Shown: piece by piece, positions 21,124 to 62,244 of the stretch
Position numbering within the stretch: the first letter of the stretch is position 1
Layout of the letters: the number at the start of each line of letters is the position of its first letter
Translations under genes and position numbers: made by a program
NCBI RefSeq assembly: GCF_964355755.1
Contig: NC_092678.1
Coordinates: 14,010,352 to 14,074,351, forward strand
Origin: Antedon mediterranea
Taxonomy: Eukaryota; Animalia; Echinodermata
Direction of reading: 5' to 3'
DNA length: 64,000 bases
The notes under the pieces: model-generated
The model's database searches: none
What the model was told of the DNA's origin: nothing
The model's input: the letters and a program-made list of their open reading frames with translations, nothing else

Positions 21124-21357
21124 AACTTAAATTTTCACCAAGTGTCAATACAAAATGACTTTTGGTTTATAATCTATGACCAATCATTGAAATTCATAAA
21201 ATTGCGCGTAACTTACACTGCACGACTCTAACGTCATTAAAAATATGGAGGTGCACAACTTCAGGTAAATGTCCATATAATGACAAGTTTATACAAAAGA
21301 TATATTCACAAGCAATAGGGGAATGCTGCTCACAAAAATCCGGGAAAGAAAGAAGAA

Positions 21358-22903
21358 CTAGACATGAAACTCGTCACTGTGACGAGTTAGTTATCCGCAC
21401 CACGACAAACGCCACGTGCACGTCATACGTTGGAATATTGCACACAGATAAAGATTATGGCATTATGACAAGAACTGAAGAATATGATATGCTGTTAGTG
21501 CTGAATTCTGTCAATTTTGTGTCATATAGTATATACAGTGCAAACAGTATCTGTATACATATTACATACAGTGTAAAATAGGTGAAATTACGGGACCCGC
21601 CATTTATTCCAATTTTTAACATGGCGACGGTATCAAAATGAAACACTTAGATAGCAATTTCAGAAGGAAATTATCTCAGGAACAACATATTAACGTGTGA
21701 AAGAAATTTGAATACGTAAAATATAGATGCGCACCCTTTTAAATGTTATGAACTATCACGCAAAATATGAAAATACGACTTTTTTTATTCAACTGGCAAT
21801 ATGATGACTTCACAACATCTGATTGGCAAAATGTTTACATGAATTCGTATCTACAATCCAATAGCGTCCAGAAAACGTTTTAATCATGATTATCACTTTT
21901 TATTCTGACGAGCTATAACAGATTGAACTTTACTGTAAAAATGAAAATAAGTGACCCACGTTGTTTACATTTTTAGACATGATGACGTCATAAAAATTAA
22001 AATATTTTTAACTCTTACGGAAGATAGTTGATTAACGTAGACAATATTAAAATCTCGGGGGAAATGGAATACGTATAAGCGCGATGCGCTCTGTTGAATA
22101 TGATGAGCAATAACGAAACAGACAAAAATCCTATATTTTACATTCGTGTGGCCATACGATGACGTCATAACATCCGAGAGGTAAAAATTCTGCATGAATT
22201 CATATCTACAATTTATCATCTTACACAATAAGTTAAAAAAATTGGGGTAAACCTTTGATCCCGAAGAGCTATAATAGATTCAAAATTGGCATTATTTTGA
22301 CAATATTTTATAACTTTTTTAACTAAAACGCGCACAAATGGTCTAAATCAACATGTTCGTATGACGTCATTTTAATTTGAAATGATGTTAATCTTTTTTA
22401 AACTGACTAGGAAAGGCTGTAAAATCATAATTCAAGAAAAAAACACATGATTTTCATGCTCCATGCGCAGCTTACGCGTAAAATGTTTCGTGCGCGTGGG
22501 AATGATCAGCGTAGAAAGTTGATTAGAAATTATTTTTGCGCATTTTGAAATTTTAAATGCGCGTAAGCGCGTAACTCCTTGTGAAGCATGCCATTTTTAA
22601 TCCATTGAAAGTTTGCCCTTAATATGACTTAAATTTTCACTAAGTGTCAATACAAAATAACTTTTGGTTTATAATCTATGATCAATCATTGAAATTCATA
22701 AAAACACGCGTAATTCATGTTGCGCAACTCTGACGTCATTCAAAAATAGGAGGTGCACAAGTTCACGTAAATGTCGATATGTTGACAAAGTTACGATATG
22801 TTCTGTTTACACGTTTTAGAGAAACGTGACGCACAAAAATGACAGAAGGAAAGAAGTATAATACAGAAAAAAAAAAAATATGATGAAACAGGACGATTAC
22901 AAG
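21358..22903 (+). mobile_element. HINE family 2 copy, split by the 16.3-kb insertion; its terminal hairpin lies at 39199-39228
   Basis: Starts CTAGACATGAAACTCGTCACTGTGACGAGTTAGTTATCCGC; acaggacgattacaag|...|caaggagttatccgc matches the unsplit acaggacgattacaaggagttattcgc at 15931. Confidence 0.8.
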
Positions 22904-24370
22904 TAGCCTGGGTGCAGTACAAATTTTGCGGGAAAAAATTATAGGACAAATTTTTTCTTTTTTTTCTGATAGAGTATACCATATAGAATGTCAGAAAAAA
23001 AATTCCCATCCCAGGGTCTTGGGGAAAATTTTTTACGGCACTTTTAAATTTTGGCCTATATACACACACAAATGCCTATTAACAACTACTAGGCCTAGGC
23101 TAGCTAGTATACTGGACATCATCGCTGATTTAATCATTATTATTACCCAGTCCACCCCATCCAGATATCCATCCTACCTAGGCTAGCCTATGTTAAGTTT
23201 TACAATTTTACATTAATATTATCAAAATTATAACTTTTCTATATCAATGTAAACACATTACCAGCAACAACACAGTGGATTATACAAAACATAACTCACT
23301 AAGTCCATAGGCATACTACATGCAACACTTTATATATTGACTGTATGTACAGGTATTCCAAAAGCAGTAACAATAAAATACATTTTGGGGGACAGGCCTA
23401 CCTGGCTGCGATTTTGTTTTTCGTACATAAGTTGGGGACCCCTCATGAAACGTCACAAAATAAACATGAATAATTCATCAGTTAATAAAATGTTCTTGTT
23501 CCGTTTGCACCCGAAGCATATAGCAACAAGAAGTGATTACACAAGTGCGCGCGCGGTACGATTCTAGGCCTATCTCCGCTGTGGTTGCGGCGTGCGATTT
23601 CATAAAAGAATAACGGCGTTTTGTGTGGATTGTCAAAATAATCAGCCTTTAGTTTATGGTGTTTTTAATATAATTTATTACTAAAGAATTACGTGTTAAA
23701 AAATGATAGTTTCTATTAATACTACATGTATTAGGCCTAATGTTAGTCTCTAAACCCATGTCTATTCAAGTAGTAGCTGTGTGTGTGTGTGTTAGGTATG
23801 ACACAGTCCGAGTAATACTAATATAAGTCAGCAAAATTAAACAATAAACATTACACAAAAATACATTTTTTATTCTCGTGGGTCTAATCTTTCCCATCTC
23901 ATGTGTTCATATACGCGCATTTTTCTTTGAGTACATATTGTTTGATAATAAAATAGCAGAATTACGATTAGCCTTAAAATCGCTACCTGGCTAGCAACTT
24001 GCAATACATGCAATTTAGGCCTACCTAGCCTAGACGTGACCTATGCATAAGTAATTAGAAAAGTAATAGAAGAAGATGAAGCAGAAAAACAATTTTTTTT
24101 CTTACTTACATCATCCAAATGTCTCGTGAGTTTTTATTGTAAAACTCCCGGTGATAATCAGACATTGATAACCTATGTTGAGCAGCCGAAAACGTACCGT
24201 ACAATATGGACATTGCATTGGTCGTCGAGAGCACAAACACTACGAGTGTCATCAAATCCATTTCTCTTGCATAGTGATTGTAAACGGAGAGTCGTACTAT
24301 AATACATTATACTTGTATGATGTCACCTACCCATGATGATGTCAGCTATATTTAGTACACGTAAGATGCT

Positions 24371-25035
24371 AAAATAATGGCGGTGCAATATTATTATACC
24401 TACGGTTGCAATCTGGATGCGTTATGAAATACGTCAGATACCCACCGTTTGTTGTAGATGACGTCGATATAAAGACTAATATTCACCCTAGATGCTATGT
24501 TTAATACACACACATACACACACACACATAAAATAATGATGGTGCAATATTATACCCACGCTTGCAATCTGGATGCGTTATGAAATACGTCAGATACCCA
24601 CCGTTTGTTGTAGATGACGTCGATATAAAGACTAATATTCACCCTAGATGCTATGTTTAATACACACACACACACACACACATAAAATAATGATGGTGCT
24701 ATATATTATACCCACGCTTGCAATCTGGATGCGTTATGAAATACGTCAGATACCCACCGTTTGTTGTAGATGACGTCGATATAAAGACTAATACTGTATT
24801 CACCCTAGATGCTATGTTTAATACACACACACATAAATAATGATCGTGCTATATTATACCCACGCTTGCAATCTGGATGCGTTATGAAATACGTCAGATA
24901 CCCACCGTTTGTTGTAGATGACGTCGATATAAAGACTAATATTCACCCTAGATGCTATGTTTAATACACACACATAAAATAATGATGGTGCAATATTATA
25001 CCCACCGCGTTTGTTGTGGATTATAATAAAGACTA
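24371..25035. repeat. Tandem array, ~150-160-bp unit, 4 copies plus a partial, each with a variable (CA)n tract
   Basis: ttgcaatctggatgcgttatgaaatacgtcagatacccaccgtttgttgtagatgacgtcgatataaagactaata recurs at ~24406, 24562, 24718 and 24866. Confidence 0.95.
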
Positions 25036-25337
25036 AATAATAGAGTTTAAAATACATTATAATCCGCCAAGAAACAAACAAAACCTACTATAATAATATC
25101 GAAACGTATTCGATAACAGATGCATTACTAGTTCACATGCATACAAAATCGAATCAGGCACGCAAAAGCTCGTATACCTTTCAGATACTTTACCTATATA
25201 CGCTTTAGCGAATTATTCGTTTCGCTAAGAATGCATAAAATGGAACTTGACGTTTCCAAAACATCTCAGTCGAATGTCAGATTTTGCCGAAAAGACATCT
25301 AAAAAATAAATAAATAAAAAAATTAAAAAGAATTAAA

Positions 25338-26666
25338 ATGGCAGGAAGAAGAAAAAGAAGGAAACGAGCGAAACGATGTCAAAAACGAACGAACGACCGT
25401 TGTAATTTGTGCAACCTGCCGACCGAATTGCTGCTGTACATTTTCTCCTTCATGGATTACGTGTCTCAGTTAGAGTTGGCCAACTCAAGTCCCTACATGA
25501 CCGGATTGTTGGGCGATTTGGAATTGATCGCAACCGAGGCGGCCGTACAACTGTGCAAACGTAAACGTCACGGTACGGTTGACACGTTTCAAAGCTGCCG
25601 ACCATCCGCCGGAAGCCTGTTGATGTGCGTGAAGCGAAAGTTTAAGCCGGTTCTCGATTCGCAATCGACTTTGCCGCAATTCTACATGTCTAACCTAGTG
25701 CTGAAGAATGTGCATTTTAGAGAGGGAACACTGCATCGCATCTTGGAAGAAACGGTGGTCTGCTTGGAGTATTTGGAATTGGACTCGTGCACCGGTGTTG
25801 TTTTCCACCCGGCTGCCAATCAACTAATCCCGTCGGACAAAATAGGACATTCATCGATACATTGCAAAAACATGAAAGTGCACTTGGACGACGTTCGCCA
25901 AACCCTGGTTCCCGATGGATTTTCTAGCAAATATACCTACTACGTGGTACTGACCGACTGCGACATGACGGAGACGGATCAAAATCTGAACTACAGGCTG
26001 TTGATCGTGTACGACGGCCGCTCCAACGGGGCAGATGTTGGACGTTACTTTAACCTAATCACAGTCTCGTCCGTGTGGAAAGAAACCGAAGTGTTGAAGG
26101 TTCGTCCTTACACACGAAACGAAGAAGACACAGTGTGGATGCCGATGGTCAATCGGACCAGTTTAAATGCGGCCATCGACCATTTCGCCGAATCTTCAAA
26201 AGAAACCTCTCTAGAACTTTCGTTGGACGGCTACACGGATGACCGAGTCGACATGTCAGTCGGCTTGCGATTGATGAGCTGGGACTCTTTGACCACCTTG
26301 TTTCTGCTAAATTCAATAGTGGACGAAGGTTTTCTTTCTGTTGTCATGTCGGAACATCCGAACCTGAACACGATAACGATAAAGAATTGCGAAGGTGATC
26401 CGTTCGGTGAGATGGAAACGAGCCCCAACACCGCACTGAGGCATTTGAACCTGATCGAAATGAATATCGACGAGGCAGGCATGGCTGAATTCATGACACC
26501 AATCATCAACGTCGTCAAGTTAACTTTACATAATATGTGTTTCTTCGACGAACGTCTTTTCGCTAAACGATTGTACGAGACATCCGGCTATCGTTGGCTC
26601 GATTGTGAGTATGTCCGCGAGCCAGGCGTATTGGTTCCCATTGAGATGTTTCTTGAAACGGGTTGA
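25338..26666 (+). CDS. Intronless F-box protein with a basic N-terminal NLS and LRR-like C-terminal region (442 aa)
   Basis: RRKRRKRAKR, then F-box LCNLPTELLLYIFSFMDYVSQLELA; LxxLxL units (LEYLELDSC, LTTLFLLNS, LNTITIKNC, LRHLNLIEM); AAAATGG start context; AATAAA at ~26740. Confidence 0.8.
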   Translation: MAGRRKRRKRAKRCQKRTNDRCNLCNLPTELLLYIFSFMDYVSQLELANSSPYMTGLLGDLELIATEAAVQLCKRKRHGTVDTFQSCRPSAGSLLMCVKRKFKPVLDSQSTLPQFYMSNLVLKNVHFREGTLHRILEETVVCLEYLELDSCTGVVFHPAANQLIPSDKIGHSSIHCKNMKVHLDDVRQTLVPDGFSSKYTYYVVLTDCDMTETDQNLNYRLLIVYDGRSNGADVGRYFNLITVSSVWKETEVLKVRPYTRNEEDTVWMPMVNRTSLNAAIDHFAESSKETSLELSLDGYTDDRVDMSVGLRLMSWDSLTTLFLLNSIVDEGFLSVVMSEHPNLNTITIKNCEGDPFGEMETSPNTALRHLNLIEMNIDEAGMAEFMTPIINVVKLTLHNMCFFDERLFAKRLYETSGYRWLDCEYVREPGVLVPIEMFLETG

Positions 26667-26813
26667 AGAAATCGATTTTTTTATATAACAAGTATACATA
26701 ACATGTGTTTATAATAATAACAAAACAAAAATGTTCTGTAATAAAAATGATATTTATTCGAGAAAAAGAATTATTAAAAGAAAAAGCAAATGCATTCTAT
26801 ATTTTTTTTTTTT

Positions 26814-27548
26814 TCAATCATGATGAATTTGAAATATTACAAATGTCTTCATTACATCGTCTTTGTCAGCTTCTTCTTCACTCTTCTTTAGACGGAATCT
26901 TTCGGAAATGCGAATGTCGTCCGGAATATCAGATGTAGTGAATTTAGAATATTCTTGTATGAGCTCCGGTGTCATGTGGGGATGTAATTTCTTCATGATA
27001 AATTTATATTCCTTTTGCATAGCCATCTGCGTGCCTGCTATAAACGACTTTGGAAGAGGAGAGAGTCCCTGTGGAACGTAAATGTTCTCTACTACATCAT
27101 GATAGAAAGTTGTCAAGACTTCCCTCTTTCCTGTCTTTGTAAAATCGTAAAACTGTACAATTACGCCTTTGATGTATTGCAACCGAATTCCTTGCAGATA
27201 CTCGTCCAATTCCTCAATGAAATACGTAGGCCTACGTCGACCAGTGTATGCGAATTCTATATTCGCTCCCTGGAGTAGATATGCGATCATCATTTTCAAT
27301 ATCGGTTTTCCTAACAAGTCCGTGTGTGCTATCGTTGGATGAAAGTCCATACTTTTCGAAATCCGGACATCCGCTTCCCCCGGAATGTACCATTGATGGT
27401 CATAATAAATTTCGTGAGTGGTATGGTCTGTGTAAACGTCTCGATGTACATCGTAGCCTTTGATCAACAGAATTCGTTTAAATCTCCCTTCAAAGTATTC
27501 TGTTCTTTGAATTCTCAGCTTTTCAGTTACTGATCTTCGCAGCATCAT
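26814..27548 (-). CDS. Intronless orphan protein (244 aa)
   Basis: Uninterrupted ATG-initiated ORF convergent with the F-box gene; TATAAAA upstream on the minus strand near 27595; no family recognised. Confidence 0.65.
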   Translation of the reverse strand: MMLRRSVTEKLRIQRTEYFEGRFKRILLIKGYDVHRDVYTDHTTHEIYYDHQWYIPGEADVRISKSMDFHPTIAHTDLLGKPILKMMIAYLLQGANIEFAYTGRRRPTYFIEELDEYLQGIRLQYIKGVIVQFYDFTKTGKREVLTTFYHDVVENIYVPQGLSPLPKSFIAGTQMAMQKEYKFIMKKLHPHMTPELIQEYSKFTTSDIPDDIRISERFRLKKSEEEADKDDVMKTFVIFQIHHD

Positions 27549-29608
27549 TTCCCGTTTTGTTGTGCTTTTTTTTCTGTTAAAATTTCTCTTTTTATATCTA
27601 CCATTTCCCTCGCCCCCCCCCCCCCCATAATAGCCTAATGTATGTGTGAGTGTGAGTGTCCAAAGACGCGCGGCGACGTTTAGTTTGCATCCTATTTTAC
27701 AAAAGAGATATGTGTCGTGTCACCACAAAAGGAGCTTTGGGTTGAAATTATTTTTTTTTTTTTAAATTATTATTATAATATTAATCTCCATTCTTTAAGC
27801 TTTCTAAAAAAAATAATGTAACTTGCTTTATAATTTATTTCAAGGCAATTAAGATATGACCCTATTTCAACCAAGAACTTCCGAATTCAATAGATTACTT
27901 CCGAATTCAATAGATTATCAACAATTAGAAAACAGCCTTTTAAGTTCAGTGGACCATTACATTGGTTTTATTCAATAACCACAACACATTCGCCTTGGAT
28001 ACCATTAGTTATTATTACTGAATCTACATGAAATTTTAAACACTTAAACAATGAATACGAGTATAGATTACACTTTAATTTCTTTCAATTTTATTATCAT
28101 CTTCATATATAAAATACAACAATTAAAAATTACATAATTATGTTGATTAATGGATTATTTTGAGCACACACAATCTGTTAACATAACTCACTTCTACTCT
28201 AGATCATGATTAGGCCTATACAAATTCTTACACATTCTTCTTCGTTTTCAATAACTATCCTCGCCGTCAGAATCTTCGTCGTCTATCCCCATCATCCAGG
28301 CTTTAGCATTAGCAAGAAGGCTAGCATTTAAAGCGTCAGCTATGACTTTTTCCGATCGTTCATTATCAGAATTAGACATTTCTATTAATTATATCAAACT
28401 ATTAATTTGAATGATGCAAAAGAATTATAGTATAGTTTATTAAAAGATTGTAAATTATAACACTAAAGTAGGACAATAATGTAGTAGCACACTGTAAACC
28501 TCGTGCGAACAGCTTACCAAGGTAGTAAACAATACGTCTACGCACGTTCACAAGTGATTGACCAATCAGAGGACGCGATTAGTCCCTTTTGTTTGGCTGT
28601 ATTTAAGGCCGAAGCCTTTATAAAAGTGATTGTGATTGGACTATGATTGCATATTTAAATGTTTATTCATGATATTCTGAAAGATGACGTTACAAGCTTT
28701 AAAACCATACCAGTTGTGACAATGTTTGGAAAGGCGGGAACATTCGATTGAAAAATAAGGTAGATGATTTTTGGCCGGCCGTTTACGGCTGAAATAGTCA
28801 GAATTCCACACAAAACCTTACAATATTGTCTATAAAAAAACGTCAAAATGTATGTATTTTGGAACAAAATTAAGTTTTAAGGACAAGTAAACTATAATAG
28901 TTGAATATGTCGAATATGTAAGAAAAAAAAAATTATTTTAAATTGACTATTCCAACATTCAAAGCTAATTATAGCAATATTATAGCTTTTGCGACACAAG
29001 GCCGGCGGCTCCTTTCGTTGTGACGCGACCCATATAGACGCGCGCGGGGGGGGGGGGGGAGATGTGGAGAACGCATTAGTAATGCTTAACATCAGTTTCT
29101 ATAAGAGCGAGATGAGAGAGAGAGATAGAGAGAGAGAAAAACAAAAACAAAAAAATGTGCTGTATCAAATTTATTTTCTTTTATTAATCCATAAGAAAGT
29201 GACAACATTAAAATAAAAGTGAATTACATACAAAAAGTTTTGCATTTATTTATTTGGAATTACACCTTTAGATCGGTAGCACACTTAGCACAAAGGTGCA
29301 TCCTTCACAATATAAAATATAACAATTAACAGAAAAGTAAAAAAAGGCAAAAGCAACTATCCTACCCCCCCCCCCCCCCCTCAATTTACATCGATACATA
29401 CAGTAGATCATTACTTTACACAAATGAATACAAAACAAGATATAGTAAAAGTGTACAAAATAAAATCAACTGATAAACACAGCTTATTACGTAAAAACCC
29501 CAACCTCTCCTCCCCCCCCCCCTTTTTTTTTTTCAATTTACTTAATGTAGCAATGTAGATAACATAGTTGCATTGCAGTTAAAGTTTGGTGCTGTATATA
29601 TACAATTT

Positions 29609-30124
29609 TTAAATGTCGCATACGCACAAGATTTCTATCGACATCGGCTCATATACTGCCGCGTCTACATTACATCGTTGAAAGCACTCATCCGATACGG
29701 GAATAGTTTCTGGATAACCAAACAGAGCGGGAACGCACCTTCCCACGTTTTCACCTAATGGAAAAAAGCAATGAGAACCAAACAGATCGCATCCATCATT
29801 GTCCGGTACGAGAAGCCATTGATCATCAGCCGATCGGTTTAGGCTACACGTTTCTAAAGAATATTTCATACCGTCCCATCGATCGCATTCATCACAACAC
29901 GTAACAATATGAGTACCGTCTTCGATGATGTCAATGCACGCATATTTTTCGCTCTCTCTAATGCATGCGTCGTGATATAGAAACGGCGATACTCCGTCAA
30001 CGTACACCGATCCAATTAACAAGTCCGGACGTTCATCGATGCACATTACACAACGATGGTGGTAAAGTAGTAGTAGTAATATGAGTAGTAGTAGTAAAAT
30101 GTGTTTCAACGCCTCTGTATCCAT
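29609..30124 (-). CDS. Cys-rich secreted or membrane-anchored protein (171 aa)
   Basis: N-terminal hydrophobic run ILLLLLILLLLLY followed by a cysteine-dense domain; the start overlaps the upstream ORF by 19 nt. Confidence 0.7.
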   Translation of the reverse strand: MDTEALKHILLLLLILLLLLYHHRCVMCIDERPDLLIGSVYVDGVSPFLYHDACIRESEKYACIDIIEDGTHIVTCCDECDRWDGMKYSLETCSLNRSADDQWLLVPDNDGCDLFGSHCFFPLGENVGRCVPALFGYPETIPVSDECFQRCNVDAAVYEPMSIEILCVCDI

Positions 30125-30396
30125 GCGTCACAATTGGTTCTGATGTAAAGCGATACCAACGAAAACAAAGGCCAATGTCTTGTCTCATTATGTTCTGTAA
30201 CGGGCATGCAAACGTGATGAAAATGTTTTGAGAATCCACTTCGTATAGACGCTGATATGACGTGTGACGGAGGACGAGGTCCGGCGTTTTCAAATTTTAC
30301 GAACCTGTTCAATTTGGTTGGAGCCATAGAATGCCAAGACCTTGTTGCCGGGTTGTAACCGCCAATCATGCGTGGTATTCCGTCTAATACGTCGTA
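30106..30396 (-). CDS. Probable -1-frame C-terminal continuation of the kelch-like protein
   Basis: The track ORF 30106-30441 starts at GTG, not ATG; it contains kelch-like IGGYNPATRSWHSMAP and joins the upstream ORF at a T7 run (30396-30402). Confidence 0.55.
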   Translation of the reverse strand, partial: YDVLDGIPRMIGGYNPATRSWHSMAPTKLNRFVKFENAGPRPPSHVISASIRSGFSKHFHHVCMPVTEHNETRHWPLFSLVSLYIRTNCDAWIQRR

Positions 30397-32258
30397 AAAA
30401 AAGGAAACTTTACGGTTGATCTGACTTTTTGCCTGAACCACGGGCCGTGTTTTTCATTACGTTTGAAAACATGTTCATTGTTGACAACAAAAATGTGTCC
30501 ACTGTCGTGTATAAGCGACGTGTTTTTGTCCAAGTGTCGAATGTATGATTTGGCAAAATTATCAACGAAACGAGACGGAAGTATTCTGTTCGGAATGTCA
30601 ACGTCGGCCATCAATTGGCTCGAGATTATTGAAAGCTTAGAAACAACCGTTTTAGGCTCAGCTCTAGTGCACATGACGTTGCCGATAGTGAACAGTTCGA
30701 TTTCACCGTTTGACTCGTTTCCTTTGCACCATTTACTCGAGTAATAACGATACGTCGTATTGAAAGCAAACCACTCTTTTCGTATCGTGTCATACACGAA
30801 TCCATATTTTTCAGTATCGCATCTACTCGTGTCGGTTCCTAGAAAGTCTAACATGTCAGTCGGTGCGCCGGTTTCGAATCTACCACCAACAAACACTAGC
30901 AATCTATCCAGAAAACAAAACATTTGCATTCCACAACGATGCCGGCAAACGACAGGCATTTCGCCAATTTTAGTCCATTCTGCTATACCGCCCTTGTTCA
31001 GGGTTTCTCTGGTGCACTCGTACACTTGAAAATCTGTTTCAAAGACGGCGTACAGTGTGTTCTTGTTACTCGTGCAACTTAAAACGCCCTTTATTGTTAC
31101 GTCATGAAACAATGGTCGAATGACAAGTATGGTTGTACCTGTGAACGCGTGATTCATGTACACGTCACCGGAAGAAAGAACGGTAAAAACAGATGCGTTC
31201 GGTGTGTCCTGACAGGCAAGTTGACGTTCCGGTGGTCGAGCAGACATTTTCAAGAGCGTCTTGATTCTGTCGGTGGTTCGTAAATCATCGACGACGACGT
31301 TGTTGTTGTGTTCGTTCATTCTATACGGCGAGAATACGGACGAGTCGAGAAGAATGCCCATGCTTGTCGCGTTGATCTTGTTGTCGGGCAATGATGCAAC
31401 CCATACGGTCACTAACCGATTCACGTCTGCATTGTAACCGCTTTTGCGAGCGTTTCGACTCAGTAATTTGTCAAAGAAACATGGCGGAATCTGAGACATC
31501 CACATGGAAATCAAATCTGGTTTCTTAACAAACAAATCGTGAATGAGCGGTGCCCAGAAAATCAACGAATCGGCAATGACACTCGATATTGCGTATGCTT
31601 TTTCCCGTTGGATTGTCGCGTGAATCAATTGGAGTACAACTGCAGTTCTAATCGGATCAAAAAACATTACTGTCGCTTCTTTCGAAATTGTTTCAATTGT
31701 ATCCGTTGAGATTTTTGGGAATACAATGCCTGTGTTTATGAGCATTTGCTTGATTTTATCCAGAGCAATTGTATTGTTCAAGTACACAGACAGTTTTGTA
31801 AACGAAACGATGTTTTCAATTGTAAACGGTTCATTTCTTTTGGTAAAGTTGTTTACGGCGTTTGCGTCCAACCATTTCGGTACTTTATACCAAATGTTGC
31901 CGCTTACTTTATCTTTTACAAAATGAAGATTTCTTATCTTATTTTTTGAGTCGTCGTGTTGTACTCTGTACGACGAATCGGTATCACGTTCCAAAAACCC
32001 GTCGTCGTATACATCACCTGTATGCTGCTGCTGCTCCGGTTGAACTTCAGTCTCCGAATCAATTTCGGGCACGTTATTCGGCGGCCGTTGAAATATTTCA
32101 TAATTTAAAGGTGTTACGGTAGCAGATTTTGCTAACGTTGAAGGTCCATCATCATCATCATCTTCATCATCAGATGATATCCACACAGTATCAAGTTTTC
32201 TTACTTTCTTACTGTCTTCGTGACGTTCATTAGAACCGTGCCTGCGTCTGGACGCCAT
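30384..32258 (-). CDS. Kelch-like beta-propeller protein with a basic/acidic N-terminus (624 aa from first ATG; ~717 aa if frameshift-extended)
   Basis: WTKIGEMPVVCRHRCGM..LLVFVGG and YDTIRKEW resemble kelch blades; first ATG (MASRRRH) at 32258; intronless and CpG-rich. Confidence 0.7.
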   Translation of the reverse strand: MASRRRHGSNERHEDSKKVRKLDTVWISSDDEDDDDDGPSTLAKSATVTPLNYEIFQRPPNNVPEIDSETEVQPEQQQHTGDVYDDGFLERDTDSSYRVQHDDSKNKIRNLHFVKDKVSGNIWYKVPKWLDANAVNNFTKRNEPFTIENIVSFTKLSVYLNNTIALDKIKQMLINTGIVFPKISTDTIETISKEATVMFFDPIRTAVVLQLIHATIQREKAYAISSVIADSLIFWAPLIHDLFVKKPDLISMWMSQIPPCFFDKLLSRNARKSGYNADVNRLVTVWVASLPDNKINATSMGILLDSSVFSPYRMNEHNNNVVVDDLRTTDRIKTLLKMSARPPERQLACQDTPNASVFTVLSSGDVYMNHAFTGTTILVIRPLFHDVTIKGVLSCTSNKNTLYAVFETDFQVYECTRETLNKGGIAEWTKIGEMPVVCRHRCGMQMFCFLDRLLVFVGGRFETGAPTDMLDFLGTDTSRCDTEKYGFVYDTIRKEWFAFNTTYRYYSSKWCKGNESNGEIELFTIGNVMCTRAEPKTVVSKLSIISSQLMADVDIPNRILPSRFVDNFAKSYIRHLDKNTSLIHDSGHIFVVNNEHVFKRNEKHGPWFRQKVRSTVKFPFFTTY

Positions 32259-32311
32259 CGCAATACTACAGCAACACGCACGCACACACACAATATGATC
32301 GCTAATATTAC

Positions 32312-32644
32312 TCACTTCAATAACTGCTTAAGAAATGTGGTTAACGTTTCAGAATATTCCTCCTTGTTTTTACTGGAACTAGCAAATTCACGTGCAACGT
32401 GAAGTGTGACAATAATGCGGCCCTCATTCACGTGGCCGTCTTCAAACATGCCCACGAGCAGATCGTGTAATGACTTGGCGCTGCGACATTTCACCTTATC
32501 AACTTGATTCTTGATTTCAGTTTTCAATTCTGCGTTGCTAAATGTTTCCGGATATTCACGTTCAACTTTTTCCTCGTTTTCCAAATAATTTTTGGCCAAA
32601 ACGATCAATTTATCAACATCAAAACCACCGTTTCTCTTTAACAT
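32312..32644 (-). CDS. Truncated Bcl-2-like protein (110 aa from first ATG)
   Basis: MFEDGHVNEGRIIVTLHVA matches the BH1 pattern (LFxDG.NWGRIVxL) with W to E; BH3-like EKVEREYPETFSN upstream; no BH2 or transmembrane tail; TATAAA just upstream. Confidence 0.65.
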   Translation of the reverse strand: MLKRNGGFDVDKLIVLAKNYLENEEKVEREYPETFSNAELKTEIKNQVDKVKCRSAKSLHDLLVGMFEDGHVNEGRIIVTLHVAREFASSSKNKEEYSETLTTFLKQLLK

Positions 32645-32822
32645 CTTGTTCAACAATATTTCTTTTTTTGAAGTGACTTTCTCGTTTATACGCACATCAA
32701 TTTATAGTACCGGAATGATTCTCTGTCAACAATCCCGTTTGTACGGTTCCGGTCTAGGATTTGCGTTTGTGATGACCGCTATGTTATGTAAATGAGCCTG
32801 TGCAGCTGGTGTATTAATAATT

Positions 32823-32865
<43 letters not shown>

Positions 32866-32890
32866 ACACACACGTTTCATAAGTTTGGTT

Positions 32891-33515
32891 ATGGATTCAG
32901 AACAGGGCTTAATTGGAGACCAGGGGTATGCTACGTCTAAAGCCAAAAACTTGGACATTAACCAGGTATCTGATGGTTTTGATGCCAAGTTGAACAATTT
33001 TAAAAGGCATGTTGCCGAGGAGTCATATTCAGCATTGAAACGTGCTCGGTCAGCGCATTTCAACGATGAATTAAAGATAGTGTATGAAAACAACGATCAG
33101 AGTGAAACGCTCACCGAAGGTATTATGATTCTTGAGAAATGACAAAAATTAAAAAATTTAAAAAAATAAATAAATAAATAAATAATTTATAATAGCTTAT
33201 TTTTTTTATTATTTTTTGTGTGTTTCAGATGAAGACTTTGGACCACTCACAGATCTGCGTATTTCCGAGTTGGCAAGAGAGCTGGGCAATGATTGGTCAA
33301 TGATAGCAACATATTTAGGAATTTCACTCGCTCAACAACAAGATTTACGTCAGGCTCATTACATTTGTAGTCGGGAACGTAATCAAGAAATGCTTGTTAT
33401 ATGGCGCAAGAGAGATTCATGCTGCCAAAAATCAGACAAACTACAATCATTAATGAATGCATTGGAAAAAAGTGGAAGAATCGACTTAAAAAACAAAATC
33501 AGTCTATGGCAATGA
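32891..33515 (+). CDS. Death-domain protein, two exons (32891-33119 and 33229-33515), 171 aa
   Basis: LTDLRISELARELGNDWSMIATYLGIS..QEMLVIWRKR..LMNALEKSGRIDL is a death-domain pattern; GAAG|GTATTA donor and pyrimidine-rich TTTCAG|AT acceptor give a phase-matched 109-bp AT-rich intron. Confidence 0.78.
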
Positions 33516-33846
33516 AAGTCAAAACTATAGCATTCGTATTTATAAAAGGTGTACGGTAGAGTACGTTTCTTCAATAATGAATCATAGCATTCGATCTATA
33601 TTAGTTTTGTTTTGAAAAGAGTTTATTAAAAAAAGAAAACACCTTTAACCGAGAACACCGTGTACTGTTATTGTAAAAAAATTTCGTTTCTAAAAGTTCA
33701 CGTTCACAACAAGAAGGATAGCGCGCAAGCAACTTGGCCATCTAGAATTCGTTCGATAATGTTTTAGAAAAAAATAAAAGCTTTACTTCGACGCCTAATG
33801 ACAGCGTGCGTCAATGTTTTAAAAAAGAGAGAACATACTTCCCCCT

Positions 33847-36800
33847 TATATACAATAACGTTTATAACTTTCCAGATCATACTTCTTTTTCTATTCGATT
33901 ACAGTTTCTAATGATAGCATACTTCAGGAATGATCCTGATTGTTCTTATATTAATTATTATACATGGTTTCTTAAATCCAAACACACTCTTATTCTAGAA
34001 AGTTCATGTAGATACATACACCGTCTCTTTACCGAATGAACTGATAAGGTCGTGCAATCAATAAGAGGCATAACATGCCGTGCATTCGTCGTGCGTTGTA
34101 TATCGAGAGAACAAATGAAAATATTGTTTACTTCGAGAATAAGCAATACACCGTCTCTTTACCGAATGAGCTGATAAGGTCGTGCAATCAGTAACAGGCA
34201 TAACATGCCGTGCATTCGTCGTGTGTTGTATATCGAGAGAACAAATGAAAATATTGTTTACTTCGAGAATAAGCAATACACCGTCTCTTTACCGAATGAG
34301 CTGATAAGGCCGCGCAATCAGTAACAGGCATAACATGCCGTGCATTCATCGCGTGTTGTATAATTATTATACATGGTTTCTTAAATCCAAACACACTCTT
34401 ATTCTAGAATGTTCATGTAGATACATACACCGTCTCTTTACCGAACTAACTGATAAGGTCGTGCAATCAATAAGAGGCATAACATGCCGTGCATTTGTCG
34501 TGGGTTGTATATCGAGAGAACGGATGAAAATCTTTTTTTTTTTTTTTTTACTTCTAGAAGAAGCAATACACCGTCTCCTTACCAATCGAGCTGATAAGGA
34601 AGGCCGCGCAATCAGTAACATGCATAACATGCCGTGCATTCATCGCGTGTTGTATAATTATTATACATGGTTTCTTAAATCCAAACACACTCTTATTCTA
34701 GAATGTTCATGTAGATACATACACCGTCTCTTTACCGAATGAACTGATAAGGTCGTGCAATCAATAAGAGGCATAACATGCCGTGCATTCGTCGCCTGTT
34801 GTATATCGAGAGAACAAATGAAAATATTGTTTACTTCGAGAATAAGCAATACACCGTCTCTTTACCGAATGAGCTGATAAGGCCGTGCAATCAGTAACAG
34901 GCATAACATGCCGTGCATTCATCGCGTGTTGTATAATTATTATACATGGTTTCTTAAATCCAAACACACTCTTATTCTAGAATGTTCATGTAGATACATA
35001 CACCGTCTCTTTACCGAATGAACTGATAAGGTCGTGTAATAAATAAGAGGCATAACATGCCGTGCATTTGTCGTGGGTTGTATATCGAGAGAACGGATGA
35101 AAATCTTTTTTTTTTTTTTTACTTCGAGAAGAAGCAATACACCGTCTCCTTACCAATGGAGCTGATAAGGAAGGCCGCGCAATCAGTAACATGCATAACA
35201 TGCCGTGCATTCATCGCGTGTTGTATAATTATTAGACATGGTTTCTTAAATCCAAACACACTCTTATTCTAGAATGTTCATGTAGATACATACACCGTCT
35301 CTTTACCGAATGAACTGATAAGGTCGTGCAATCAATAAGAGGCATAACATGCCGTGCATTCGTCGCCTGTTGTATATATACAATAATGTTTATAACTTTC
35401 CAGATCATACTTCTTATTCTATTCGATTACAGTTTCTAATGATAGCATACTTCAGGAATGGTCCTGATTGTTCTTATATTAATTATTATAGGCCTACATG
35501 GTTTCTTAAATCCAAACGCACTCTTATTCTAGAATGTTCATGTAGATACATACACCGTCTCTTTACCGATCGAGTTGGATACGGTCGTGCAATCAATAAG
35601 AGGCATAACATGCCGTGCATTCATCGCGTGTTGTATACCGAGAGAACAAATGAAAATATTGTTTACTTCGAGAATAAGCAATACACCGTCTCTTTACCGA
35701 TCGAGTTGATAAGGCCGTGCAATCAGTAACAGGCATAACATGCCGTGCATTCATCGCGTGTTGTATAATTATTATACATGGTTTCTTAAATCCAAACACA
35801 CTCTTATTCTATAATGTTCATGTAGATACATACACCGTCTCTTTACCGAACTAACTGATAAGGTCGTGCAATCAATAAGAGGCATAACATGCCGTGCATA
35901 CGTCGTGTGTTGTATATCGAGAGAACGGATGAAAATATTTTTTTTTTTTTTTTTTTTACTTCGAGAAGAAGCAATACACCGTCTCCTTACCAATGGAGCT
36001 GATAAGGAAGGCCGCGCAATCAGTAACATGCATAACATGCCGTGCATTCATCGCGTGTTGTATAATTATTATACATGGTTTCTTAAATCCAAACACACTC
36101 TTATTCTAGAATGTTCATGTAGATACATACACCGTCTCTTTACCAATCGAGTTGATACGGTTGTGCAATCAATAAGAGGATAACATGTCGTGCATTCGTC
36201 GCCTGTTGTATATATACAATAATGTTTATAACTTTCCAGATCATACTTCTTATTCTATTCGATTACAGTTTCTAATGATAGCATACTTCAGGAATGGTCC
36301 TGATTGTTCTTATATTAATTATTATAGGCCTACATGGTTTCTTAAATCCAAACACACTCTTAGTCTAGAATGTTCATGTAGATACATACACCGTCTCTTT
36401 ACCGATCGAGTTGATACGGTCGTGCAATCAATAAGAGGCATAACATGCCGTGCATTCGTCGCCTGTTGTATATCGAGAGAACAAATGAAAATATTGTTTA
36501 CTTCGAGAATAAGCAATACACCGTCTCTTTACCGAATGAGCTGATAAGGCCGTGCAATCAGTAACAGGCATAACATGCCGTGCATTCATCGCGTGTTGTA
36601 TAATTATTATACATGGTTTCTTAAATCCAAACACACTCTTATTCTAGAATGTTCATGTAGATACATACACCGTCTCTTTACCGAATGAACTGATAAGGTC
36701 GTGTAATCAATAAGAGGCATAACATGCCGTGCATACGTCGTGTGTTGTATATCGAGAGAACGGATGAAAATCTTTTTTTTTTTTTTTTACTTCGAGAAGA

Positions 36801-38057
36801 AGCAATACACCGTCTCTTTACTAATGGAGCTGATAAGGAAGGCCGCGCAATCAGTAACATGCATAACATGCCGTGCATTCATCGCGTGTTGTATAATTAT
36901 TATACATGGTTTCTTAAATCCAAACACACTCTTATTCTAGAATGTTCATGTAGATACATACACCGTCTCTTTACCGATCGAGTTGATACGGTTGTGCAAT
37001 CAATAAGAGGCATAACATGCCGTGCATTCGTCGCCTGTTGTATATATACAATAATGTTTATAACTTTCCAGATCATACTTCTTATTCTATTCGATTACAG
37101 TTTCTAATGATAGCATACTTCAGGAATGGTCCTGATTGTTCTTATATTAATTATTATAGGCCTACATGGTTTCTTAAATCCAAACACACTCTTATTCTAG
37201 AATGTTCATGTAGATACATACACCGTCTCTTTACCGAATGAACTGATAAGGTCGTGCAATCAATAAGAGGCATAACATGCCGTGCATTCGTCGCCTGTTG
37301 TATATCGAGAGAACAAATGAAAATATTGTTTACTTCGAGAATAAGCAATACACCGTCTCTTTACCGAATGAGCTGATAAGGCCGTGCAATCAGTAACAGG
37401 CATAACATGCCGTGCATTCATCGCGTGTTGTATAATTATTATACATGGTTTCTTAAATCCAAACACACTCTTATTCTATAATGTTCATGTAGATACATAC
37501 ACCGTCTCTTTACCGAACTAACTGATAAGGTCGTGCAATCAATAAGAGGCATAACATGCCGTGCATACGTCGTGTGTTGTATATCGAGAGAACGGATGAA
37601 AATCTTTTTTTTTTTTTTTTTACTTCGAGAAGAAGCAATACACCGTCTCCTTACCAATGGAGCTGATAAGGAAGGCCGCGCAATCAGTAACATGCATAAC
37701 ATGCCGTGCATTCATCGCGTGTTGTATAATTATTATACATGGTTTCTTAAATCCAAACACACTCTTATTCTAGAATGTTCATGTAGATACATACACCGTC
37801 TCTTTACCGATCGAGTTGATACGGTTGTGCAATCAATAAGAGGCATAACATGCCGTGCATTCGTCGCCTGTTGTATATATACAATAATGTTTATAACTTT
37901 CCAGATCATACTTCTTATTCTATTCGATTACAGTTTCTAATGATAGCATATTTCAGGAATGGTCCTGATTGTTCTTATATTAATTATTATAGGCCTACAT
38001 GGTTTCTTAAATCCAAACAAACTCTTATTCTAGAATGTTCATGTAGATACATACACC
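33847..38057. repeat. Complex tandem array: ~25 copies of a ~75-bp core with 3-4 alternating linker types, forming an ~834-bp higher-order repeat
   Basis: Core atacaccgtctctttaccgaatgaactgataaggtcgtgcaatcaataagaggcataacatgccgtgcattc; the long linker recurs at 35381, 36217, 37049 and 37882. Confidence 0.95.
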
Positions 38058-39028
38058 ACACAAATACCTATATATAGGGGATAGGGAAAACCAATTCACG
38101 TTTTTTTTTTACTTGGAGTTGTGTTATGATGATTAAAATTTGCTGAGGCTTACTTTAATAACTACTTCTCATAGTAGTTGATAAATCGAGTCGATAACAA
38201 TGACATCATCATGCCAGAATCCAATATGGCGTCCAATTTGGCGGAAAAAACAGGGTATTGCTAACCCCGCAAACCCTTGCAAACCTACTTGTAAAAAAAA
38301 ACATAGCAAACCCCACCGAACCAACACAAAAGTGTAGTGATTGAATCATGTAGTGTACGACCCACTGGGTATATCCATGTAAAAAAAAAAATTAAATTTC
38401 TACGGTTAACTACTTATTTTTGGGGTAAAACCTCATTTTTTGGTCAAAAATGATTGCTAAACCCTGCAAACCTCCAAAAAAACATAGCAATCCCCACCGA
38501 AACAACATAATAAAAGTGATTGAATCATGTAGTGTACGACCCACTGGGTATATCCATGTTTAAAAAAAATAAAATTTCTACTGTTAACTACTTATTTTTG
38601 GGGTAAAACATCATTTTTTTTGTAAAAAATGATTGTTAATTTTTAACCAAAAAATGATGTTTTATCCCAAAAATAAGTAGTTAATTCAGTAGAAATTTTA
38701 ATTTTTTTTTACATGGACATACCCAGTGGGACGAACACTCCATGATTCAATCACTTTTATGTCGGTTCGGTGCGGTTTTCTATGGTTTTTTTTAGGTTTT
38801 CAGGGGTTTGCGGGGGTTTAGCAATACCCTGTTTTTCCCGCCAAATTGGACGCCATATTGGATTCTGGCATGATGATGTCATCGTATCAACTTGATTCAT
38901 CAACTACTATGAGAAGTAGTTATTAAAGTAAGCCTCTACTAATTTTAATCATTAAAACACAACTGCAAGTAACAAAAACTGTTAATTGATTTCCCTATCC
39001 CGTGTATGTTAATAGGAATTTGTGTGTG
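38057..39028. repeat. ~970-bp foldback (imperfect palindrome) forming the inner body of the TIR element
   Basis: gggatagggaaa..ctttaataactacttctcatagtagttgat..atgccagaatccaatatggcgtccaatttggcgg is mirrored at 38640-39001; the left arm has an internal ~180-bp duplication. Confidence 0.9.
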
Positions 39029-39198
39029 TTCTATAGGCCAAAATTTAAAAGTGCCATGAAAAATTTTCCCCAAGACCCTGGGATGGGGATTTTTTTTCTG
39101 ACATTCCATATGGTATACTTTATAAGAAAAACCAAAAAAACATTTTCCTATACTTTTTTCCCGCAAATGTGTATAATAATTGTTCTGCACCCAGGCTA

Positions 39199-39733
39199 CA
39201 AGGAGTTATCCGCTACTAAGCGGATAACAAATAAAGATGAAAAAAAAAGATATTTACAATCACAAGGGTTATCCGCAACTTAATAAGTTGCGGATAACCA
39301 ATTAATAAGTTGCGGATAACCAAAAAAAGATATTTACAATAACATGGGTTATCCGCAACTACTAAGTTGCGGACAACCAATGAAAAAAAAGATATTTACA
39401 ATAACAAGGGTTGTCCACAACTACTAAGTTGCGGATAGCCAACTAGATTTGAACTCGTCAAAATGACCTTTGGTTTATAATCTATGACCAATCATTGAAA
39501 TTCATAAAATTGCGAGTAACTTACGCTGCGCGACTCTAACGTCATTAAAAATATGGAGGTGCACAACTTCAGGTAAATGTCCATATAATGACAAAGTTAT
39601 ACAAAAGATATATTCACAAGCAATAGGGGATATGCTGTAGACAAAAATCCGGGAAAGAAAGAAGAATAACAAAGAAGATGAAAAAGATATTTACAATCAC
39701 AAGGGTTATCCTGCAACTAAGTTGCGGATAACC
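39199..39733 (+). repeat. Stack of HINE terminal hairpins plus an internally deleted HINE (39443-39733)
   Basis: Repeated aaaagatatttacaat(c/a)aca(a/t)gggttatccgcaact..agttgcggataacc units; CTAGATTTGAACTCGTCA at 39443 is fused directly to the distal block. Confidence 0.8.
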
Positions 39734-41118
39734 AAAAAAAAAAAAGATCCGGACAATAACCAATTAATCAAAACATATCCCAAAGGCCTCTATAATTCTT
39801 AAAAACGAAGTACTGTAGGAAAAGTTGGTAATATCTGGATGTATTTTAAGAGTTGAAGATGATCTTTGACTGACTAAACAATAGACTGTTTATAATACCA
39901 GGTTTGCATGTTCATAGTAGGAAACTGCTAGGAGGCAATAGAGAGTGAACATTAAATTAAGATAAAAGATATCTTTCTGTAGTCAACACCTTTCAGTACA
40001 TCTATGAATGAATAAGTAGTTGAGAGCAGGAATGCTAGTAAACTAAACCCAGTACCATTTTGATTTGACAAGAAATTATCTCTCTCTCTTTTGAAAATGT
40101 CTTCAACACATTCAGGTATTCTGTAGGAGTATAGTATCTTGGTGTGTAAAAGTTTATTAATAATTGTCTTTGTTACATGTTTAGAAGAGAATTTATATCT
40201 GATCGTAGTTGTACTACACTGTTTGGTAAGCCGTGTGTTGTTATTCAAATGAGTTTTTGTTTGTTAATTTTTTGTTAATTTTGTATATTAGAAGTTGCCT
40301 AGTATTGTATTAACTTTTTCCTGCCATACAACTTTATGCTGTACTGTTGGTTACACCGGTAGGGAGATATCTGGTTCATGCCAGATATTTTATTGTAATA
40401 TGTTATGCATTAATATTAATCGCTCTTGATCTTGGAACTTTAAATATTGTGTGGTCGCCACTCGAGGCTGGATGGAATTTTTTTAGAGATTTTTCCCCGA
40501 TTCGGTTATCAGGGGTTTTATTCATTGCCTATCGCAAGGTTAAGAGTGTTTTAGTAGAACATTACAGGTTAGCATCTGTTTGCCTTCAGTTCATTTAATT
40601 GAAAACAGAACAGAAAAGTAAAAAACACACGACTATTTAATTTTCGTCATTTTATCTAGAAACGAATATTGCATTTATTTTGTTTGTTTGTTATTTATAC
40701 GGGGTTATGGAAGTTGGCGTGTGTGACCGCACTTTCCCAGAATAAACATGTTTTAAACAGATATTTTGTCTCCATTGGTTCATGTATGGGGTTAACAGTG
40801 GCTGAGATGAGATCCAAATTTAACTGTGCTGTGGGCATTAGGTTAGATCGATCACACTCCCACACCTCAAAAGACAAGGCCTGCTATTGGTTAATAAAGG
40901 ATTTAAAGCAACTTACTGAGATCTAAATGTTGAACTTTTGGGCGATCTGAGTATGGATCATTTTTGTACAATGTATCCAGTATCTTCTCCTTTACTTGAC
41001 TGATGGTGTCACAGCTAAGAACTTTCACTTTTTGAAATGCACCACTGTCAGAATGTTGTATTGCATTCAGTGTCTGTAAAATAAAAATAAAATTTATTTC
41101 TAGAATATTAAGTTGTAA

Positions 41119-42659
41119 CTAGAATTTAATTCGTCACTTTGACGAATTATAGGTGATCATTTTTATCATTTTATTGACATTCATATTTTTTAAACATGCA
41201 CGTATGTTAACATACAATCGGAAAATGTTGATGTATGCCATCCTATTATACGCTATAGTGCTGAGTTGTGCCTATCATATGCCATATATACATTATGTAC
41301 AGTATATACTGTATATCTATATACAGTGTAGCATTAGTGAAATTAGGGACACACATCGTGTTCTAATTTTTTGGCACTGATGACATTATCAAAATAAACT
41401 TGTGGATAACAATATCGAAAGATAAAGAATTGAGCAATAAAATATAACAATTGGAAGAAAATTTGGCACGTAGAAGCGCGGTGCACGCTCTTTAAAATTT
41501 GTATAACTTTGACGAAAGAGATGAAAAATTTGCTTTTTAACTTCAACTTGCCATATTATAACGTCACAAGATTCCATAGGCTTAATTTTTATATAAATTC
41601 ATATCTACATTTAACCAGCTCTAATAATAAGTTATAAACATCAAGGTCAACTTTAATTCAGAAGAGCTGTAAGTTATTCAAATGTACCTTATAGGTGAAT
41701 TTACGTAACCACAGTTATTCAAATTTTAAGACGTGATGACGTCATCAAAATGAAAATGTTGGCAACTCATGAGTAACATAATTGGTTGAGGTAGAATATA
41801 TTAAAATTATAAAAGAAAATCAATTACAGATAAGCGAGTTGCGCTCTGTTGAATATGGTAGTCTATAACAAAAGGGGAAAAAACCCTGTTTTAAAAATAC
41901 ATGTGGCCCAAATGATGACATCATTCCATTTTGTACGTCTAATGTGTATATACATTTATATCTACAACTCATTGGCTTCCATAATAAGTTAAAAAAATTG
42001 GGGGTCACCTTCCATTCTGAACAGTTATATTCATTTTAAAAAGGCCTTATTTTTTACAATTTTTAGCACTTTTGTATAATTAATGTGCGCATTTTGTCAT
42101 TTTTAACGTGCTCGTATAGCACTATTTTAAGTCGAAATGGACTCAAATTTGTTGAATGTACTATGGAAGTTGAGTAGAATGCAATTTGTACCAAAAAAAT
42201 GATATTTTTTACGCTTTCTATGTACGCACGCGCAAAAACGTGTTTTTGCGCAGTAATTTTTTAAAACATGCAAATGGCCTGCTCTAAATTGATCAAAACG
42301 TAATTTTGAGCTTTTTAAATTTTTAACGCGCTCACGCGCATGACCCTGCGTGCTCGTGCGTTTTTATTTGCTAATATTTTTACCCTTGACCTGATGTTTA
42401 CGTGTAGTGAATTCATTAATATGTGATAATTAATTATGGAGATATGATTGATATTGCAATTTCACAAAATGGCATATAAATGACGTCACGGGTGAGGGAT
42501 CACGCTGAAAAGCTTATTAGGACTAAGTTAAAGTATTTGAAAGACATTCTGAAATTTTGATAATCATTGACATTAAAGTTTTTGAGATATTTGTTACACA
42601 AAATCTGTACAGAAAGAAATTGCAAAGAAACATTTTTTTTTTACAAAAACAATTTCTCA
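41119..42659 (+). mobile_element. HINE family 3 copy lacking its terminal hairpin
   Basis: Starts CTAGAATTTAATTCGTCACTTTGACGAATTATAGGTGATCA; homologous to 42660-44212 and, inverted, to 46673-48195. Confidence 0.8.
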
Positions 42660-48195: not shown

Positions 48196-48196
48196 T

Positions 48197-62243: not shown

Positions 62244-62244
62244 T

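Follow-up and report, generated by a model that had tools for sequence, protein, structure and literature searches.

Poxviruses carry BTB-kelch, F-box and Bcl-2-like host-range proteins. Pack-TIRs are elements in which DNA other than that of a transposable element (TE) lies between terminal inverted repeats (TIRs); in animals, those found in single copy mostly result from gap filling with microhomology (PMC8277862). The element described here, 16.3 kb long and bounded by TIRs (22904-39198), is found in a stretch of 64,000 nucleotides of Antedon mediterranea (contig NC_092678.1, positions 14,010,352 to 14,074,351 of the forward strand), hereafter the window, whose numbering is used throughout. 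The element is real, and unusual in size and in content. It consists of a cargo block nested in one arm of a miniature inverted-repeat TE (MITE). The block carries the closely packed, mostly intronless open reading frames (ORFs) P1 to P6, whose predicted roles concern cell death and protein degradation. A giant Pack-TIR, in which ~15 kb were copied into the MITE arm by gap filling from some virus-like donor, is the reading preferred here, at even chances. The claim that the cargo is a mobile cassette stays a candidate.

Insertion site and nested structure

The element interrupts a Helitron-like non-autonomous repeat, named "HINE-type" in a preliminary description made from the sequence alone. 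The left flank (21357-22903) is 81% identical to a related copy (46673-45128) up to the insertion point, and this copy continues through the empty site. The CAAG that flanks both ends of the element is single in related copies of the repeat in the same window, at 15934, 15996, 44783 and 45132; these are empty sites. The preliminary description had reported the split repeat, the CAAG duplication, the first of these empty sites and TIRs of ~180-190 bp, all of which are seen. One further complementary pair (G...C) is present at the junction, which GTAGCC ends with a 2-bp AA duplication would describe just as exactly.

The inverted ends (22904-23084 and 39198-39007) are 85% identical over 192 alignment columns. 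Both start with TAGCCTGGGTGCAG, found a single time on each strand of the window, and the MITE ends carry TAGCCTGGG. TAG ends would fit Academ transposons. The part of the earlier Academ label that stands is the length of the duplication, since 4 bp fits (PMC10045372).

The rightmost 1.15 kb of the element is a palindromic, foldback-like MITE. Positions 38053-38451 repeat 39029-38639 in inverted orientation, with identity at 349 of 381 aligned positions; the symmetry of the arms extends to 38619/38649 and the centre lies near 38630. Only the first ~165 bp of the MITE are absent there, and they are present instead at 22904-23084. The ends therefore belong to a MITE of ~1.3 kb, and the earlier view of ends and cargo as one mobile 16.3-kb transposon has so far found no support: the ends are those of a separate, short palindromic MITE and the cargo is nested in its left arm. 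The simplest map is a host repeat containing a MITE of ~1.3 kb, which in turn contains ~15 kb of cargo in its left arm (Table 1).

The end of the left TIR and the restart of the inner arm fall at nearly one position of the arm. The score of the arm segment that is repeated on both sides of the cargo was equalled by 0 of up to 3000 random windows. The two ends of the cargo have no similarity to each other. The right tandem array is broken inside a unit at the MITE junction, where ATACAC is common to the array end and the arm; this motif is low-complexity, and the observation of a shared motif is limited to the right breakpoint. Helitron-type cargo ends, considered from the CTAG-rich left end, were rejected, the other end being without TC. 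Both tandem arrays that had been described as bracketing the genes are present, and no mobility gene is found in the cargo, as had been claimed.

Table 1. The element, its predicted genes and its host locus
Feature	Coordinates a	Strand	Remarks b
Left part of interrupted host repeat	21357..22903	+	Helitron-like, non-autonomous
CAAG target duplication, left copy	22900..22903	+
Left TIR, TAG end	22904..23084	+	Outer ~180 bp of the MITE left arm
Arm segment flanking the cargo, left copy	23057..23079	+	21/23 identical to 38048-38071
Cargo block, ~15 kb	23085..38057	.	Within the MITE left arm; outside arrays, no self-match to the remaining window
Nested high-copy repeat	23401..23990	.	Short imperfect inverted ends (15-nt inverted pair)
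Left tandem array	24370..25005	.	~4 x 156 bp (period 156)
P1, 442 aa	25338..26666	+	F-box-like N-terminus, possible LRR
P2, 244 aa	26814..27548	-	Orphan
43-codon ORF	28248..28379	-	Acidic tail; in a ~1.4-kb segment with imperfect inverted ends; no Pfam match
Nested high-copy repeat	29230..29604	.	X1 summed depth up to 395,000; one X5 contig joins 29229 to 29605, skipping the repeat c
P3, 171 aa	29609..30124	-	Hydrophobic N-terminus, 15 cysteines
P4, C-terminal piece, other frame	30106..30369	-	End overlaps P3 start by 19 nt
P4, main piece, 624 aa	30384..32258	-
P5, 110 aa	32312..32644	-	Bcl-2-like, BH1-like NEGRI, no transmembrane tail
P6	32891..33515	+	Two exons, 32891-33119 and 33229-33515; predicted GT-AG phase-1 intron
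Right tandem array, 4.2 kb	33810..38057	.	Subunits of 130-149 nt
Remainder of palindromic MITE	38053..39198	.	Inner left arm, centre, right arm, right TIR
CAAG target duplication, right copy	39199..39202	+	Host repeat resumes there
Host plexin gene	40906..63785	-	At least 10 coding exons; Pfam TIG_plexin, PSI, Plexin_cytopl, Plexin_RBD

a Positions in the window. b aa, amino acids; LRR, leucine-rich repeat. c X1 and X5, public runs of organisms A and B.

Genes and predicted proteins

The six ORFs of the preliminary description are all present; the kelch-like gene is split over two frames, and a seventh ORF, of 43 codons, is added. As to the families claimed, the death domain is clear, the Bcl-2 and F-box matches are weak, and the kelch-like protein is now likely of BTB-kelch type. 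An exact-sequence look-up of five proteins of the window in a protein collection found 0. Searches among 5.8 billion proteins, limited to those of near length, gave no homolog of P1, P2 or P3.

P6 is, by its sequence, clearly a death-domain protein. The domain is C-terminal in exon 2 (Pfam Death, E 1.9e-10, 41.1 bits for a cut-off of 22.6), and the closest PDB match is the PIDD death domain (E 1.7e-5). P5 matches Pfam Bcl-2 with E 1.7e-4 (22.5 bits; cut-off 31.4). Its sequence matches in PDB are weak but consistent: 55 of 56 are Mcl-1 (best E 0.06), with NEGRI in place of NWGRI. P1 is predicted to be an SCF adaptor: three F-box models match one stretch (Pfam F-box, E 8.5e-4, 19.6 bits, cut-off 20.5), and the Pfam LRR match has E 0.009.

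P4 has a sole homolog, P0001, among 1.84 billion representatives (38%, E 2.7e-106); P0001 has 788 aa and is encoded on a 24.6-kb contig. Since ORF 30106-30369 matches the C-terminus of P0001 (38% over 97 aa, E 1e-19), P4 is read as one gene; a mutation, an assembly slip or recoding would account for the break in its frame, which falls at a homopolymer run near 30400. No Pfam family matches P4. A model of the pair (low confidence, predicted local distance difference test [pLDDT] 34.7) was compared with known structures. In VIA, the best row is the KLHL26 BTB domain (Z 7.2, root-mean-square deviation 3.2, 75 aligned), and BTB/POZ domains make up 12 of 50 rows; in Foldseek against PDB, KBTBD2 takes the top 7 rows (E 1.1e-3 to 8e-3). 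These fold matches are individually weak and jointly suggestive, and P4 is likely a BTB-BACK-kelch protein, a putative Cul3 adaptor. The last residues of P4 (NCDAW..RR; 30106-30126) are conserved in P0001 at exactly the place shared with the start codon of P3; this is a hint that this distant relative also has the overlap of P4 and P3.

P2 matches no Pfam family and P3 no fold; neither has a usable match in the ESM Atlas. A P2 variant with a net in-frame change of +66 nt is found in three of four aligned runs. P3 is likely a secreted orphan. Its structure model has a pLDDT of 44, and a new fold is not thereby demonstrated. A cystine knot, considered because of the C-terminal CVC, is unsupported.

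Occurrence and depth in other individuals and relatives

Ten public runs, from four studies, contain parts of the cargo; the four that contain at least half of its sequence words are one sample. Contigs were aligned from five of the ten runs, with X1 standing for organism A, X5 for organism B and X8 for organism C. Summed contig depths are not copy numbers.

In X1, the cargo contigs have depths of 948-1202 (8/8 among the contigs listed) and the host contigs of 1124-2788 (7/8 among those listed; one is at 4677), and a heterozygous host site is split 999/2087. Because of these depths, the closest cargo subtype is taken as about one haploid copy in X1. Four of the 1332 bases of P1 differ from the window and no X1 contig has the letter of the window; X1 therefore represents another haplotype, and the species genuinely has this block in its DNA. 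The TIR positions have summed X1 depths of 40,000-213,000 and the inner MITE arms a mean of 341,000: by contig depth, the MITE arms are commoner than the cargo by tens to hundreds of times (contrast of at least 40-fold).

Within the cargo, summed X1 depth rises to 1.75 million at 23438, against 1097 at 23371; the repeat at 23401-23990 is likely a second MITE. The segment 27601-29067, which has imperfect inverted ends and contains the 43-codon ORF, shows at 28060-28443 about 10 times the summed depth of the neighbouring cargo in X1 and has a diverged contig of 1474 nt in X10; it is possibly a small repeated module of its own.

A second cargo subtype (~90% identity), which has the net 66-nt change in P2, is found in X1 (depth 437-528), X5 (150-162) and X10. 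The cargo of organism B is 93-98% identical to the window, with depths of 327-661 and ~150, the host contigs being mostly at 111-226. An X5 contig of 5702 nt (depth 152) spans 23983-24601 and runs 4.4 kb leftward without a match among the matches listed, a hint of different DNA left of the array in organism B. Organism C has short pieces of cargo at depth 3-12. A variant of the P3 region (29929-30292) has a depth of 973-2841 in organism B and of 133 in X1 (~1/10 haploid); this suggests that B has additional P3 paralogues and that the copy in A is non-clonal or was carried over. None of the runs with cargo is listed as RNA, and X10 was set aside as evidence of RNA or expression, its RNA nature being guessed and introns being covered.

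Among the contigs of the runs examined, none spans a junction or the element. Neither junction being spanned and both lying in repeats, an assembly chimera of repeats joined to a contaminant contig was considered. It is hardly credible: the target duplication is exact against the four empty sites, host repeats are nested within the cargo, and an independent haplotype has the cargo at the haploid depth of the host, with a related organism carrying it as well.

The depths also bear on the possibility that the 16.3-kb unit, ends and cargo, transposes whole, after a capture that would have occurred elsewhere by template switch or by fusion of two neighbouring MITEs with loss of the inner ends. This possibility is doubtful. 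It accounts for the intact TAG ends and perfect CAAG duplication, for the near-haploid depth in X1 (as expected of a polymorphic insertion), for the two cargo subtypes and the 2-4 apparent copies in organism B (327-661 and ~150 against 111-226 for the host), and for the letters of the left TIR that are rare in the family; precedents are Ssk-FB4 in flies (PMC8277862) and the Pack-CACTA hybrids (PMC13317346). However, no second TIR-cargo-TIR site was seen in the contigs of the examined runs, a search of viral and metagenome contigs for the TIR pattern gave no match, and the closest subtype amounts to about one copy. The TIRs are only 85% alike, nested repeats and a frameshift point to an ageing copy, and in organism B one contig continues into other DNA within 4.4 kb to the left of the array. 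Two independent deletions would also have had to hit the arm no more than ~20 bp apart.

The low depths of some X1 variants (133; 437-528), below haploid and possibly non-clonal or extrachromosomal, fit another proposal, in which the block is a separate mobile DNA, such as a circular viral or episomal fragment, integrated by recombination at a short shared core or with a long target duplication of its own, the MITE being only its landing site. The ~15-23-bp direct repeat on both sides and the arrays near both ends agree with it, and short motifs serve endogenous nimaviruses as integration sites, some of the eukaryote-like genes of these viruses having introns (PMC10871703). The proposal is improbable: no recombinase or integrase is found in the block, the cargo ends are dissimilar, the right end is a truncated array unit with no defined terminus, and the low depths may reflect library bias.

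Organisation and origin of the cargo

From its gene organisation, the cargo looks viral. Positions 29609-33515 are 89% coding. P5 and P4 are separated by 53 nt without AATAAA, and P1 and P2 are convergent, with back-to-back polyadenylation signals in a gap of 147 nt. GC content at third codon positions (GC3) is 0.40-0.58 in five cargo ORFs, against 0.29 in the plexin exons of the host; the CpG observed/expected ratio (o/e) is 1.2-1.6 in the cargo ORFs, against 0.32. The cargo shares dense, mostly intronless, overlapping genes of host-control type with Teratorn-like elements and endogenous large DNA viruses. Its gene set also resembles those of poxviruses, of Teratorn (Mcl1-like; PMC5601938) and of endogenous nimaviruses (PMC10871703). 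A virus or virus-like element is the probable donor; an accessory region of a giant transposon is unlikely, and an ordinary host cluster rather more so.

Several observations weigh against a viral origin. P6 has an intron, and its exon 2 is host-like (GC3 0.31, CpG 0.76). The flanking repeats equal the cargo in CpG richness. Viral core genes (polymerase, capsid, terminase, packaging ATPase) were sought in stop-free frames of at least 120 aa and by Pfam on the six ORFs, and none was found. No relative of P0001, the P4 alignment, P1, P2, P3 or P6 exon 2 was found in viral contigs, and no match of the cargo in metagenome contigs. Domains similar to those of the cargo are carried by giant retrotransposons (PMC6431247).

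Three matches of P5 in viral contigs were rejected. In L001 the match stems from a short shared peptide and falls within a protein of 1002 aa surrounded by phage-like structural genes; L002 and L003, whose score is identical, were rejected alongside. Searches with PHROGs, NCBIfam, phage tblastn and Rfam gave nothing useful. CpG richness was dropped as proof of viral origin. A profile of GC and CpG bears out the earlier remark that both exceed the flank means (GC 37.6% in the element vs 33.0% and 31.7% in the flanks; CpG o/e 1.26 vs 0.98 and 0.76); high CpG is not peculiar to the cargo, flanking repeats reaching 1.3-1.8 in 1-kb windows. Of the virus-derived module that had been claimed, the compact virus-like block stands; support for its origin is limited to gene organisation, with no hallmark gene and no viral-contig relative.

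The intron and host-like composition of P6 would be expected if the cargo were a fast-evolving, ordinary host cluster of immunity and apoptosis genes captured by the MITE. Every recognised domain is moreover an animal domain, and organisms A and B differ similarly in the cargo (2-7%) and in the host flanks (3-7%), which matches vertical descent. Such a capture is nevertheless very improbable. The intronless genes are overlapping and 3′-coterminal, and their composition is unlike that of the plexin exons. P1, P2 and P3 are without homolog among the 5.8 billion proteins and P4 has one among 1.84 billion. The near-haploid depth in X1 implies that the individual has no fixed parental locus of the closest subtype.

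Proposed history of the locus

In the giant Pack-TIR reading, a MITE with TAG ends and a 4-bp duplication would first have transposed into the Helitron-like repeat. A break in its fold-prone arm would then have been repaired by copying 15 kb from the donor through a template switch. A short AC-rich microhomology where the donor's tandem array ends would have been the point of return, with ~15-20 bp of the arm repeated in the process. Two small repeats would later have inserted, and the BTB-kelch gene would have been frameshifted, unless this break is an assembly slip. The donor itself would likely be a virus-like mobile element of larger size, present at low copy in this animal lineage.

In the donor, the block may have served to keep the carrier cell alive and to dampen signalling. 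P5 would bind pro-death Bcl-2 proteins and P6 would act as a death-domain decoy. P1 and P4 would bring host targets to SCF and Cul3 ligases, respectively, and P3 would be secreted.

Other observations count against this history. The 15 kb far exceed the 224-bp median of animal Pack-TIR captures (PMC8277862). The F-box (P1) and Bcl-2 (P5) matches lie under the Pfam cut-offs, and the BTB-kelch call depends on a model of pLDDT 35. No donor was seen, the searches of viral and metagenome contigs being without match. No junction is spanned by a contig of the runs examined, and the two copies of the junction repeat (21/23) differ from each other. The left TIR has letters rare within the TIR family at 22939, 22947 and 23004, which fits an old copy and also a separate cargo-bearing subfamily. 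Among at least 18 coding differences listed, 7 are synonymous and 11 are not (40 of 589 rows), with no selection signal either way.

The capture was likely a one-off, and a mobile cassette is doubtful. Slightly more doubtful than transposition of the whole unit is the fuller proposal of an undescribed virus or virus-like element, persisting at low copy in this animal lineage, whose complete host-control module (Bcl-2-like, death-domain, F-box, BTB-kelch and secreted orphan) was picked up by an Academ-type MITE and is now moved between loci as a presence/absence cassette.

Host neighbourhood

The last plexin exon found lies 1.7 kb from the insertion. The remaining exons were not found in the 65 of 114 candidate frames scanned, nor by eye; the insertion may lie in a long plexin intron. 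Between two plexin exons, 3.1 kb of repeat insertions (41118-44214) are skipped by X1, X2 and X5 contigs and constitute a polymorphic intronic insertion. CpG is depleted over the plexin gene body (51001-61000), with o/e down to 0.16 against 1.3-1.8 in repeats, which resembles mosaic invertebrate methylation.

Other repeats of the window include a broken Helitron-like coding region (9627-14229) with 69-bp repeats and frames for an OTU protease, a PIF1 helicase and an endonuclease, a possible partner of the many nearby HINE-type repeats. Two degraded long interspersed nuclear elements (1115-3855 and 17761-20879) carry frames for an endonuclease and a reverse transcriptase. A near-perfect 349-bp tandem duplication is found at 44652-45352 and a minisatellite of 47 bp x 11 at 62245-62763.

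Significance and comparison with known systems

If the preferred reading is true, animal Pack-TIRs can capture not just pieces of a few hundred bases but 15 kb with several genes. The accessory genes of some selfish element or virus would then also have come to light, a set to which the searched protein collections offer no close relative. A polymorphic block of anti-apoptosis and ubiquitin-adaptor genes in related species gives a direct test between spread by transposition and benefit to the carrier cell. If the block is a decaying one-off capture, interest lies mainly in the identity of the donor; if the cassette is moved between loci, it is an animal counterpart of the giant elements that move cargo.

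The literature searched, which did not include subscription journals or Repbase Reports, contains no description of the element or of a TIR-bounded Bcl-2/death-domain/F-box/kelch cassette. With the poxvirus host-range set, the cargo shares BTB-kelch, F-box and Bcl-2-like genes, and for the P0001 model several of the highest-ranking matches in the viral library are poxvirus kelch proteins (E 3.6e-4 and weaker); identity to poxvirus kelch proteins is however ~10%, and human KBTBD2 scores similarly, which indicates a fold class and not descent. The Burro giant long terminal repeat (LTR) retrotransposons are likewise selfish elements rich in apoptosis (BIR, BCL2-like) and ubiquitin-related domains; unlike here, these domains form part of a single polyprotein, together with gag, pol and LTRs, and copy number is high (PMC6431247).

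Endogenous nimaviruses, insertions of large DNA viruses in invertebrates, have anti-apoptotic and other eukaryote-like genes, some with introns, and some use TIRs and a borrowed transposase; they differ by their size of hundreds of kb, their core genes and their integrase, and no sequence link with them was found (PMC10871703). In Teratorn, a fusion of piggyBac and a herpesvirus, transposon ends likewise enclose genes of viral type, among them an Mcl1-like inhibitor of apoptosis, but Teratorn is 180 kb long and encodes a transposase and all core herpesvirus genes, none of which is present here (PMC5601938). Unlike in Polinton/Maverick elements, neither protein-primed polymerase nor integrase is found in the ORF set, and the duplication is of 4 bp instead of 6 bp (PMC10045372). 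The element is not a Teratorn, a Polinton or a complete endogenous virus.

The target duplication is of the length known in AcademX (3-4 bp; PMC10045372), here CAAG, the 2-bp reading being also possible; no transposase is found in the element, and 4-bp duplications are also given by other superfamilies. As in Pack-CACTA and Pack-MULE elements, outer non-autonomous ends surround captured genes, and complementary terminal deletions of two neighbours would give a similar map; in plants, gene fragments are mostly captured, and here the breakpoints nearly coincide on the arm with a small overlap (PMC13317346). The structure is that of a Pack-TIR: non-TE DNA internal to a TIR element, intact ends and a target duplication. 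With animal Pack-TIRs and Ssk-FB4, the locus shares internal non-TE DNA, a candidate microhomology at a breakpoint, near single copy and, as for FB4, a carrier of foldback type; no parental locus in the host was found among the contigs examined, and the locus differs from them by 15 kb of cargo for a median of 224 bp, by six or seven whole, packed genes and by a cargo that is viral-looking rather than of host type (PMC8277862).

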